A stretch of DNA of 64,000 nucleotides from Octopus vulgaris (Eukaryota), in the NCBI GenBank assembly GCA_951406725.2, contig OX597817.1:24614001-24678000 (forward strand). Direction: 5' to 3'. The number at the start of each line of letters is the position of its first letter. The stretch's first letter is position 1. The notes below the pieces were generated by a model. That model was not told the origin of the DNA and ran no database searches. It saw only the letters and a program-made list of their open reading frames with translations. Below are positions 28,030-56,331 of this stretch, piece by piece. The position numbers were made by a program, and so were the translations under genes.

Positions 28030-28402
28030 AGGCGTAGGAGTGGCCGTGTGGTAAGTAGCTTGCTTACCAACCACATGGTTCCGGGTTCAGCATCACTGCA
28101 TGGCACCTTGGGTAGGTGTCTTCTACTATAGCCTCAGGTCGACCAAAGCCTTGTGAGTGGATTTAGTAGACAGAAACTGAAAGAAGCCTGTCGTATATGT
28201 GTACGACCTCGTGTATACCGTTGGCGATTTTTTTTCCTCTGTCTTCCCTTCTCTGGATCTTTCCTTCTCCTATGTTTCCGACGAAGAGCTCCGCTCAAAA
28301 CGTTAAACCCTCCTTCTTCCCTTCTTTCCTGAGCATCCAATAATACTATATTTGTTCTACGTCCTCGCGTTGTCGTGTTTTTTGGGGTTTTCTTGTTTGG
28401 AT

Positions 28403-28455
<53 letters not shown>

Positions 28456-28662
28456 TTGTGTGTCTGTGTTTGTCCCCCCAACATTGCTTGACAACTGGTG
28501 GTGGTGTGTTTACGTCCTCGTAACTTAGTGGTTCGGCAAAAGCGAATGATAGAATAAGTACTAGGCTTACAAAGAATAAGTCCTGGGGTCGATTTGCTCG
28601 CCGAAAGGCGGTGCTCCAGCATGGGCACAGTCAAATGACTGAAACAAGTAAAAGAGTAAAGA
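28030..28662 (+). mobile_element. SINE family A with an approximately 200-bp insertion in its internal microsatellite
   Basis: Head at 28030 and tail at 28662. The foreign block 28203-28406 sits in the TA/TG tract. Confidence 0.9.
28203..28406 (+). mobile_element. Probable Penelope-like 3' fragment with a variant or degenerate hammerhead motif
   Basis: gttt-CCGACGA-a-gagc-tcc-gctc-AAAA-cg-TT-aaac at 28274-28308. The pyrimidine-rich body ends in (TA)n. Confidence 0.6.
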
Positions 28663-28786
28663 GTCATAGAAATTAGCTGGTCTACTGATATGAACATTTT
28701 TACCAAATTCCAGTGATAAAGAGCACATAAATCGAAAATTATCCAAATGCTAAAATCATAAGCAGAAAGTGTAACCTCTCGAAAGA

Positions 28787-29081
28787 GCAGTTCTTCACTC
28801 CTGCTCCAGAGCATCGGCTGCGGGGTCATTCCGAAAAGCTCTACCTCCAACGATTTCATCTCAATCGAAGGAGAGGAGCATTCTCCGTCCGGGTTGCGGA
28901 TCCGTGGAACAAGCTGCCAGACGAGATGGTGAAGATGCCGACGACCGCTTTGTTCAAAGTCTCCTTGACATCAAGTGGCCTGAACTCTTTACATGAATAC
29001 CACCCTATACTTAACTCCATGTCCCCCTACATGGCCTTGCTTTTTGCTTTTGAGCCCAAAAATTAATTAACTAACTAACTA
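28787..29081 (+). mobile_element. CR1-clade LINE 3' end with a (TAAC)n tail
   Basis: FFTPAPEHRLRGHSEKLYLQRFHLNRRRGAFSVRVADPWNKLPDEMVKMPTTALFK. Confidence 0.9.
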
Positions 29082-41516: not shown

Positions 41517-41547
<31 letters not shown>

Positions 41548-41553
<6 letters not shown>

Positions 41554-41975
41554 AATATTAGGGAATGAATCCAAAATTACAGGGAAAAATCAGATTTAGG
41601 GTTAAATCCAATTTTATAGTAAAATATTATATAATATAATTCGAGACAAAACCACTATTTTAAAACCAAACAAGGAAAGACTTAATCAATACATAAAATC
41701 AATATATAAAATTTTAATTCACTTCAAAATTTGATACTGATTAGAAGATCGAAAATCCACCTGAAGATTGTCGGTAGCAGACACGAAACATTTGTAGTGG
41801 CGGTTTATTTAATTTATATTAAAATTTTATGTATTGATTAAGTCTTTCCTTGTTTGGTTTTAAAATAGTGGTTTTGTCTCGAATTATATTATATAATATT
41901 TTACTATAAAATTGGATTTAACCCTAAATCTGATTTTTCCCTGTAATTTTGGATTCATTCCCTAATATTTATTAT
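41548..41975 (+). mobile_element. Penelope-like element insertion: inverted partial pseudo-LTR plus a 5'-truncated copy, within (TA)n
   Basis: 152-bp inverted arms 41548-41699 and 41824-41975 with no mismatch seen. Hammerhead motif in the spacer; (TA)n on both sides. Confidence 0.8.
41757..41800 (+). ncRNA. Minimal type I hammerhead ribozyme motif
   Basis: Stem I ccac/gtgg, core CTGAAGA, stem II tgtc..gaca, cGAAA, very short stem III ca-tt-tg, cleavage triplet GTA. Confidence 0.7.
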
Positions 41976-41997
41976 TATATATATATATATATATATA

Positions 41998-42136
41998 TTC
42001 TTTACTACCCACAAGGGGCTAAACACAGAGGAGACAAACAAGGACAGACAAAAGGATTAAGTCGATTACATTGACCCCAGTGCGTAACTGGTACTTAATT
42101 TTTCGACCCCGGAAGGATGAAAGGCAAAGTCGACCT
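41998..42136 (-). mobile_element. SINE family D, 5'-truncated, between (TA)n tracts
   Basis: Reverse complement of the 3' half of family D. Confidence 0.9.
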
Positions 42137-44133: not shown

Positions 44134-44424
44134 ATAAGGAAAATAAGACAAGGTAGAAAATGCTAAAATAATTTCTTCACAAAGAGCATTTTGGTACTGG
44201 TTTCATTCTTTTCAATTTTTCAACTTGGAAAATGTGCTACCAATTTGAAGACTATGGGAATAGTTTAAAAAAACATTTCATTTAATTTTTTCACAATTCA
44301 ATTGTTTTTCTTTTCTTTTTTTTTTTTGCTTTACTCTCAGTTGTAAAAGTTGAAAAGACTGAAGCTGGTACAAAATGTTCTTCATGATAAAATTATCTTA
44401 GCATTTCCTACCTTGTCCTATTTT

Positions 44425-44465
<41 letters not shown>

Positions 44466-44586
44466 AGGAAAATAGGACAAGGTAGGAAATGCTAAGATAA
44501 TTTTATCATGAAGAACATTTTGTACCAGCTTCAGTCTTTTCAACTTTTACAGTAAATATAAAATAAATATAAAAATAGTTGGTGAA

Positions 44587-44639
<53 letters not shown>

Positions 44640-44675
44640 TTCACCAACTATTTCTATATTTATTTTATATTTACT
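44134..44675. repeat. Compound fold-back repeat: three copies of an approximately 90-bp unit plus a 40-bp inverted pair, centred on two (TA)n tracts
   Basis: 44342-44430 is the exact reverse complement of 44463-44551. 44551-44590 vs 44636-44675 has one mismatch. An older diverged copy lies at 44134-44224. Confidence 0.92.
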
Positions 44676-55383: not shown

Positions 55384-56331
55384 CTAGCAGCATAGCCCGG
55401 TGTTGCCCGGGTATGTAAGAGCCCCTAGTAGGCAACGACTAATCCCAATCTAGTCCTTTCCCTCTAGGGAACGAAGGCGCATGTGTAGGTTGCAATGTCT
55501 TCTCTTCACTCGAATACTTCTGTGTATACGATGTTCTTAGCTGTCCCTTTGGGCGAAAACATGAAAACATCATTGCGTCTCCCAACGCATGAACAGCCCA
55601 CGTAGAGTTGACCGTTGGCAAAGCATTGTTCGCCCAACTGTAACCCAGCGACTTGTAGCGTTTGGCCTTGGGATTTATTGATGGACATTGCGAAGCAGAG
55701 TTTAACAGGAAACTGAGAATGCCTGAAGTGGATTGGTAGGTCAGCGCCCGACGGTTGAAGGTGCATGCGTGGAAGACGTACTCTCCCTTCCCACAACCGG
55801 TAAGTATTGTGGCCTTTATTAAATGTGGTGGCAAATGTTTCACAACCAGACGTGTGCCGTTGCACTGTTTAGGTGGAACCAAATTCCTGATGAGCATAAT
55901 GGGCACACCGACTTTTAACTTCAGGATGTGTGGCAGCAGGCCTGGCGGTTCAAGTGAATTCAGGAATTCAACAGGATAATCGGCAAGCTCGGCGGGGTCT
56001 GCTGTCCTATCAATAGATTTGTAGACGTGGACATCACCAGGAATAGCTTCAAGTAGCTGGATATTGATGGAGTTGAGAGTTAAAAAGGTCGAGTTGCGTC
56101 CCCTAGACAGTCTGTGGTTTGTGTTTCTGATTCTCGACCCCATGTCGAATTTATCAATTTTTTCAGAACTGGGGGAACTTTTCAAAATTTTCACTACGTT
56201 AGTTTTGAATTATGACATTGGGCTATGTGTGTGTCAAGTTTCATCAGAATCGGTTGAAAGCCGTGGTCAGGGTGAGGGTACAACCTGACAGACACACAGA
56301 CAGACAAACTGCCGTTTATATAGAGAGAAGA
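55384..56331 (-). mobile_element. Internally deleted Helitron retaining the helicase C-terminus
   Basis: A|TC 5' end; 3' hairpin cccggg-caaca-ccggg followed by CTAG|T; PIF1-like coding fragment inside. Confidence 0.95.
55506..56070 (-). pseudogene. Helitron RepHel PIF1-like helicase C-terminal fragment, frameshifted
   Basis: YPVEFLNSLEPPGLLPHILKLKVGVPIMLIRNL..CNGTRL, then after a frameshift QFPVKLCFAMSINKSQGQTL..GQLYVGCS..KNIVYTEV. Confidence 0.95.

Follow-up and report, generated by a model that had tools for sequence, protein, structure and literature searches.

The window analysed here, a stretch of 64,000 nucleotides from Octopus vulgaris, contains a fold-back at 41548-41975 that raises the question of what kind of element made it and how its two arms came to lie head to head. 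The arms (41548-41699 and 41824-41975) are exact reverse complements of 152 bp around a spacer of 124 bp, without any further arm match outward of them, and (TA)n borders the structure on both sides, just as the initial annotation of this DNA had described. Its reading of the locus as a young insertion of a TA-targeting, hammerhead-bearing Penelope-like element (PLE) also stands, but it missed that the insertion consists of spliced leader sequence and that a copy with two long arms is an exception in its family. Almost certainly, the element is made of head-to-head DNA copies of the spliced 5' leader of a PLE of the Hydra clade, inserted in (TA)n. The whole explanation, in which these spliced leader copies likely arose by twin priming on one RNA, has in our estimate a probability of about 0.65. 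The parts of the structure are collected in Table 1, and comparisons with published elements refer to those portions of the cited sources that were available to us.

Table 1. Parts of the fold-back and its borders in window coordinates; u numbers count along the leader unit.
Feature	Position	Strand	Remark
Left (TA)n target array	41522..41547		window sequence
Left arm, reverse copy of leader u260 to u109	41548..41699	-	u1 = 41716
Filler of 16 nt at the head-to-head joint	41700..41715		read by eye
Exon 1 of the parent leader	41716..41747	+	in the parents, the GTATGT donor comes next
Exon-exon junction	41747..41748	+	the parents' 1.03-1.33-kb GT-AG intron is precisely missing
Exon 2 part of the leader (pLTR and tail)	41748..41975	+	parents have 56 nt more to the ORF ATG
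Predicted minimal type I hammerhead, Hydra-clade form	41757..41800	+	predicted cut after A41796
Short end site u178-180	41893..41895	+	about half of the family arms end here
Tail of about 80 nt between the two end sites	41896..41978	+	parent comparison
Right (TA)n target array	41979..41998		adjoins a separate dispersed repeat (41998-42136)

Taken in its full extent (41716-41975), the right arm represents the 5' leader of a Hydra-clade PLE. It starts with exon 1 at TCACTT, which we take to be initiator-like, and matches the parent to 41978, three bases beyond the left arm, which has its outer end at the long (tail) site, is 5'-truncated and lacks the hammerhead. This difference of three bases, all of which match the parent, is more easily reconciled with two separate priming events than with one end having later been copied onto the other. 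The filler at the joint was recognized by eye as a slipped re-copy of adjacent arm sequence with one mismatch. The short end site is read through in the window copy, and loose (TA)n ends behind 41895 occur in contigs of public runs. The joint at 41702-41715 has no cover in the contigs of four other public runs, which is neutral on artefact or polymorphism, and contigs of presumed RNA runs cover the unit, with RNA and DNA origin not distinguishable; among the runs listed as containing the unit, none is on record as RNA. The dispersed repeat next to the right array, presumably SINE-like, has eight further copies in the window (84-93% identity), and the TA array at its end carries the insertion.

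The unit u1-u260 is dispersed through the genome, with 1,034-1,603 candidates at first look; the youngest subfamily accounts for 514 exact 22-mer matches, and several older subfamilies exist besides. Perfect arms are therefore no special feature of the window copy, an idea we rejected because at least 40 other arms are 100% identical over an 84-bp stretch, in addition to the 514 with the exact 22-mer. Most copies are head-to-head pairs. They share a 5' limit near u1-13 and end on the 3' side at one of two fixed sites about 80 nt apart, u178-180 (short) or u260-263 (long); (TA)4 or a longer array follows at 104 of 105 arm ends in the subfamily-1 loci sampled.

The spacer carries the words of a hammerhead, including GUA at 41794-41796, which predicts a self-cleaving site after A41796. 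A descriptor finds this site once in the window, both strands considered, and thus confirms the hammerhead motif described by the initial annotation; it matched none of 20,000 dinucleotide shuffles of the spacer and nothing in 100 window shuffles, having been written with this motif in view and with the core-adjacent pair allowed to be open, while a stricter first descriptor missed the site. Rfam returned no hammerhead match even at E<=10. The core is conserved among genomic copies: in 16 distinct variants, the core words are kept and stems I, II and III are 100% paired, while loop 2 ranges from 6 to about 20 nt and position 7 and the core-adjacent pair also vary. Covariation had been expected in stems I and II and did not appear there because both stems barely change. 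Only stem III covaries, with one compensatory pair (A-U / G-U / G-C) that keeps its palindrome, and the overall covariation score is no better than that of shuffles (50/500). Like that of dimer-type PLE hammerheads (PMC4209133), the palindrome leaves no room for a hairpin, and its duplex is weakest in the youngest subfamily (-2.9 versus -6.4 to -10 kcal/mol). In place of the canonical G10.1-C11.1 pair we found U.U, U.C, A-U, U-A, A.C and A.A, with an open U.U pair at the base of stem II in most family copies; the C at 41784 is private to the window copy among subfamily-1 loci. Open stem II pairs also occur in 14 of 26 Hydra hammerhead rows, and one row has U.C (Craig et al. File S2, PMC8557442). 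What the initial annotation had regarded as an imperfection of this copy is hence a family-wide trait and the usual Hydra form, and decay of the ribozyme in the youngest subfamily was dropped as an explanation because the same open pair is present across Hydra elements.

Parents of the short copies were retrieved as 20 loci in which an ORF fragment is joined to a family arm. Their order is an upstream region, exon 1 (u1-32), the donor, an intron, a TTTTAG acceptor, exon 2 (u33-260), the stretch leading to the ATG, about 820 codons and a 3' region, after which the same leader follows again. The intron is of the GT-AG type and about 1.0-1.3 kb long, and the arrangement exon 1|GT...AG|exon 2 is present in all eight fetched parents. 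Compared with parent L168, the window copy has no difference in 32 exon-1 bases and two in 146 exon-2 bases (2/178). Four of 30 loci have a different sequence upstream of u33, one of them with an inverted piece of a PLE ORF, by which the gene-bearing element was retrieved. The link from the arm to an ORF with reverse transcriptase (RT) and GIY-YIG domains that the initial annotation anticipated was thus found in the gene-bearing parents; in L172, it is a single open frame of 821 aa with the GIY-YIG domain at its C-terminus. A master that runs from promoter to ORF was sought in the youngest subfamily, where none of the 19 resolved promoter-bearing ends runs into an ORF; promoter and ORF stand in line only in older subfamilies (L193, L207). 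Neptune-like families, found via a GIY-YIG Pfam search of the genome, were rejected as parents since they have other pLTRs, and family arms close to Neptune-like copies in L058, L074 and L088 represent nesting or later deletion rather than parentage. Two older-subfamily copies, found with a shorter loose-end pattern, are not the parent either, and no match to the 20-nt motif read from loose ends of public contigs was obtained in the genome.

Ten to 50 nt upstream of exon 1, the parents L168-L177 and L208-L237 from several subfamilies conserve a GTTnCnATGGTAAC-like word and TAACGG, which are both missing from a second subfamily. We assume that these words resemble RFX X-box and Myb sites. Such a pair of sites is known from meiotic male germ cells in mice.

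The parent ORF has DKG changed to DKT (QSDKTRN), the N-terminal motif RIKWK with lysine where RWK has arginine, a CxCx5C linker (CTCRDKSKC), no CCHH (no cysteine pair inside the GIY-YIG core), and CxxC and CxH flanking E and N (CYLC..E, N..CRH). The Hydra clade is defined by DKT, CxCx5C, absence of CCHH and CxxC/CxH around E and N, and the nuclease region VVY...YIG aligns by eye with the published Hydra alignment (PMC8557442). Judged by these motifs and this alignment, the parent is a Hydra-clade PLE. The (TA)n insertion and the hammerhead in the pLTR are both found in the parent family. In an AlphaFold model of the ORF (pLDDT 82.8), the predicted fold is nearest to TERT, the eight best PDB matches all being telomerase RTs. 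A Pfam search of the parent ORF found no family, Pfam and PDB sequence searches of the ORF and of the ORF alignment were blank or marginal, and BLASTP against the Neptune-like ORF of the same genome stayed at background level (E 0.024). Between thumb and linker (residues ~490-585), the ORFs of L149, L171 and L172 contain an Asn-rich (AAT)n insert of variable length; N-rich ORF inserts are also present in Penelope elements of Adineta (PMC3846280).

With the Hydra clade, which includes Hydra-1_Obim of Octopus bimaculoides, the octopus family shares DKT, the CxCx5C linker, the lack of CCHH, CxxC/CxH and the C-terminal GIY-YIG, and likewise the (TA)n targets, the hammerhead with the extra U.U pair, the inverted 5' copy and the one-ended tail (PMC8557442). 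Compared by eye, Hydra-1_Obim has another hammerhead and N-terminus and is a different family. The octopus unit is also larger, with about 4.8 kb or more versus less than 3 kb in the Hydra elements, and has an 80-nt tail where 30-40 bp are described (PMC8557442). The leader intron of 1.0-1.3 kb, the Asn-rich insert and the predominance of short copies of spliced leaders further set it apart from the clade as described there. The octopus element is a new family of a known clade.

Because the intron is lost precisely at its sense GT-AG borders, the template was spliced sense RNA, and the window insertion is a copy of such an RNA. The intron position lies 9 nt upstream of the ribozyme. Among the matches listed, 30 loci chosen on u97-180 only, a sample that takes in the window copy and one near-duplicate pair, comprised 19 spliced, four intron-bearing and seven too short ones, and both arms were spliced in six of the 30. 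The second subfamily, which has its own intron-bearing parent, gave 33 spliced, four donor-bearing and three other copies among the 40 exon-1 matches listed. Among the matches listed, all 30 promoter-bearing exon-1 copies have kept the donor, which also turns up behind 41747 at the loose ends of contigs from three further public runs. Spliced copies have no upstream promoter region, the longest upstream extent being about 17 nt (L032). Thirty ORF-joined leaders were examined, 12 of which do not reach the hammerhead by the search pattern; the other 18 consist of 17 with the acceptor, one unclassed and none spliced. The gene-bearing copies may have avoided splicing as unspliced nascent RNA, as internal introns of rare tandem masters or as a hammerhead-cut circle. 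Penelope of Drosophila virilis (PMC2377424) and Chlamys-3_cRei (PMC8557442) likewise have a transcription start inside the pLTR and, shortly downstream of it, a spliceosomal intron that genomic copies retain, whereas the octopus genome additionally contains hundreds of precisely spliced copies, of which the available text of these reports describes none. One further locus (L116:880-1655), flanked by (TA)n arrays, has about 600 nt of unrelated sequence fused to exon 2 exactly at its start; this stretch may be a host exon that was spliced to the acceptor of the element and then retrotransposed.

The arms are paired by a rule with few exceptions. Among the matches listed, 74 loci comprised 55 long+short pairs, one short+short pair, no long+long pair and 18 single arms (10 long, eight short), so that 55 of 56 two-armed insertions are long+short (binomial p ~1e-15). 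These loci come from three samples not selected on the 3' end, from which 10 duplicates including the window copy were dropped; the samples are top-40 lists and no genome census. Eight further loci added six more long+short pairs. The window copy is the rare long/long case, and the other exceptions are L049 and the gene-bearing insertion L171/L238 (short/short); since exceptions exist, a second RNA or re-priming must sometimes occur. A one-base indel, whose minor form is present in 24 of 77 arms, is concordant between the arms in 23 of 23 informative pairs (p ~2.5e-6 for independent draws), and five rarer variants are also common to paired arms. In the 55 pairs, the two arms are truncated independently of each other: the long arm reaches further 5' in 25, the short arm in 17, and 13 are ties; the arms of L031, L100 and L138 do not overlap, as in twin priming. 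The 55 joints show microhomology (36), filler (15) or blunt ends (4), thus microhomology or filler in 51. The joint of L109 carries a 210-bp stretch that is found again in the flank.

The statistics of pairing and alleles favour a single RNA that was copied twice, although allele concordance could also reflect two RNAs transcribed from the same source locus or conversion of one arm by the other at a later time. We consider it probable that twin priming on one RNA made the head-to-head pair. The endonuclease would cut both strands of (TA)n, and the two freed 3' ends would start reverse transcription on one and the same RNA, each at a different internal site. Of the two copies, the trailing one would displace the leading one, so that both could run to the 5' end of the RNA, and the two cDNA ends would then be joined by microhomology-mediated repair; we only infer the steps of strand displacement and repair joining. 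In the window copy, both primings would have occurred at the outer site. With internal priming just upstream of the ORF, a spliced mRNA would give only short promoter-less leaders, which would be dead ends, and gene-bearing copies would stem from an unspliced template, which would account for their intron retention. Short ends are common among promoter-bearing copies (8 of 19) but seldom occur on both arms of a pair; this suggests that an RNA can serve as template only if it contains the tail or the start of the ORF. In five parents, the tail is predicted to be able to pair with the first codons over about 10 bases. Small internally deleted derivatives at L239 and L240, composed of exon 2, tail and ORF start, are arranged in direct and inverted repeats with long and short ends and are possible emerging non-autonomous elements.

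In the twin priming of L1, both target strands prime on one RNA, the joint shows microhomology, and the inversions are not known to overlap. The octopus arms differ in that most of them do overlap and in that their start is fixed to two sites. Two internal RT start sites that bound the tail are known in vitro for Poseidon of Anolis carolinensis (PAc), the protein of which cuts and extends both target strands and does not need the hammerhead for insertion (PMC11167929). The RT dimer that we envisage for the octopus element is borrowed by analogy from the PAc model, and uncut RNA serves as template there as in the usual octopus case. PAc belongs to another clade and was studied in vitro, and its start sites are not homologous to the target, unlike the UA-rich end sites of the octopus family, which match (TA)n; in contrast to the octopus case, the available text analyses no head-to-head product (PMC11167929).

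Several other origins were weighed against twin priming. The same spliced leader could be copied only once, with the cDNA folding back on the sense template and being copied into a second arm, followed by deletions at the palindrome centre. This snap-back is unlikely, although it accounts for allele sharing, the long+short rule and the pairs with a common stop of both arms at u80-96. The short arm of 17 out of 55 pairs contains 5' sequence missing from the long arm, up to about 200 nt, some arm pairs do not overlap at all, and a cDNA started at the short site cannot template the tail; in addition, the two outer ends of the window copy differ by their three bases, and frequent one-sided deletion with filler would be required. 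Slightly less probable still are two RNAs, for example paired via the self-complementary stem III, each copied once onto opposite strands. The preserved stem III palindrome with its compensatory change and the occurrence of long/long and short/short insertions speak for this, but it leaves the unlike ends of 55 of 56 pairs unexplained, given single arms in a ratio of 10 long to 8 short, needs both RNAs to derive from one locus in 23 of 23 cases and meets the weakest stem III duplex precisely in the youngest subfamily.

The hundreds of near-identical short hammerhead copies might suggest a self-propagating non-autonomous family, retrozyme or SINE-like, that is moved in trans. Such an origin is improbable: there are no tandem arrays of the unit in any examined locus, the spliced copies lack the promoter region, and each short subfamily has a matching intron-bearing parent. 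The retrozyme offered as an alternative by the initial annotation is accordingly not borne out, the unit having neither tandem arrays nor a promoter of its own. Metazoan non-LTR retrozymes are likewise short, non-coding, PLE-related and equipped with a type I hammerhead, but they form head-to-tail tandem arrays, whereas the octopus elements consist of spliced leaders, single or head to head, and have a parent that co-evolves with them (PMC7229834; bioRxiv 10.64898/2026.07.22.740005).

For head-to-head palindromes of PLEs, self-priming on an antisense template was favoured in a study of Adineta, which would also cover intron retention, and the question was left open (PMC3846280). For the octopus family this is highly improbable: it would give unspliced gene-bearing copies and palindromic joints, but the arms are spliced at a sense GT-AG intron, and it survives only if spliced copies were re-transcribed antisense, so that it is largely refuted for these insertions. 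Opposite-strand pairs of minimal hammerheads in Schistosoma PLEs (PMC4209133) and inverted or solo pLTRs in Adineta (PMC3846280) show the same head-to-head pLTRs 100-700 bp apart and solo pLTRs, in their case with no link to splicing in the available text, unlike the octopus family; some solo pLTRs of Adineta were ascribed to recombination or deletion (PMC3846280). Equally improbable is a MITE with long terminal inverted repeats or an assembly artefact, as the perfect inverted ends in TA and the rarity of long/long copies might suggest, against which stand the exon junction, the variable joints with filler, the unlike flanks, the RT parent and the lack of fixed inverted ends in all copies (55 of 56 two-armed insertions with unlike ends, 18 of 74 loci single-armed).

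Most arms run through the cut site of the hammerhead, and therefore uncut RNA is the usual template. In nine of 28 pairs (7/22 and 2/6 further ones), both arms stop at u80-96, which one arm alone does in a single case (Fisher p 5e-5 on the first 22 pairs). These co-stops are a hint of hammerhead cutting in a minority of cases; exact starts at the predicted cut were seen in three of 100 arms listed, as compared with four at u70-77, and because the stops cluster at the AT-rich position u89, stalling of the RT or microhomology are live alternatives. A more far-reaching and rather doubtful idea is that the insertions record three RNA states. Uncut spliced mRNA would give the leader copies that reach the start site, RNA cut at the hammerhead would give the pairs with both arms stopping just behind the cut, and RNA cut at each of its two hammerheads would close into an intron-keeping circle and, copied for more than one round, give pLTR-ORF-pLTR copies. 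A hammerhead-cut circle has been proposed for PLEs (PMC4209133). The two pLTRs of one copy are closer to each other than to those of other copies in five of five cases, with 1,084 identical bases in L173, which fits a circle and also identical tandem sources. The co-stops, the lack of a spliced ORF-joined leader, the closeness of the pLTRs within a copy and the absence of a tandem array are compatible with the three states, and unspliced nascent RNA or rare tandem masters, together with RT stalling or AT-rich microhomology at u89, may be alternatives. If true, one scheme would cover intron retention, pseudo-LTRs, tails, palindromes and the role of the ribozyme in PLEs.

The Hydra clade, TA targeting, hammerheads, tails, inverted pLTRs and a leader intron have already been published for PLEs (PMC8557442, PMC2377424, PMC3846280). 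In the literature consulted, we came across neither the octopus family nor a Hydra element with an intron in its leader, nor any description of solo PLE leaders that are spliced; repeat databases and older PLE papers lay outside this scope, and a prior description is possible. PLE transposition, the keeping of introns and the origin of head-to-head repeats and one-sided tails are stated as open questions in the available text (PMC8557442, PMC3846280). Palindromes made from sense spliced RNA contradict the antisense-template idea for the octopus family (PMC3846280). As the octopus family is young, comprises hundreds of copies and has both a marker intron and two fixed start sites, it represents a natural read-out of PLE insertion, by which intron retention becomes testable, and a compact RNA and its protein are at hand for direct biochemistry. 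In repeat annotation, such elements can be mistaken for MITEs or retrozymes.

Other features were seen in the genome and the window. A very abundant young Neptune-like PLE (L081-L085, e.g., G000:C6:133343000-133351000) also targets TA and has a tail of about 36 nt, a hammerhead with a U3 core variant and two overlapping frames, a 479-aa upstream ORF and a 781-aa frame for RT and GIY-YIG. Another TA-targeting PLE (L087) has an inverted pLTR and a hammerhead with the core CCGAAGA, a U.U pair and a palindromic stem III. Within the window, a 278-aa open frame at 28137-28970 (-) gave no Pfam match. At 44315-44675, there are two adjacent inverted repeats with arms of about 110 and 46 nt, each centred on (TA)n and hence of a layout opposite to that of the element at 41548-41975. 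The 256-aa open frame at 55442-56209 (-) matches the Pif1 2B domain (Pfam E 8e-15) and is probably a fragment of a Helitron helicase.
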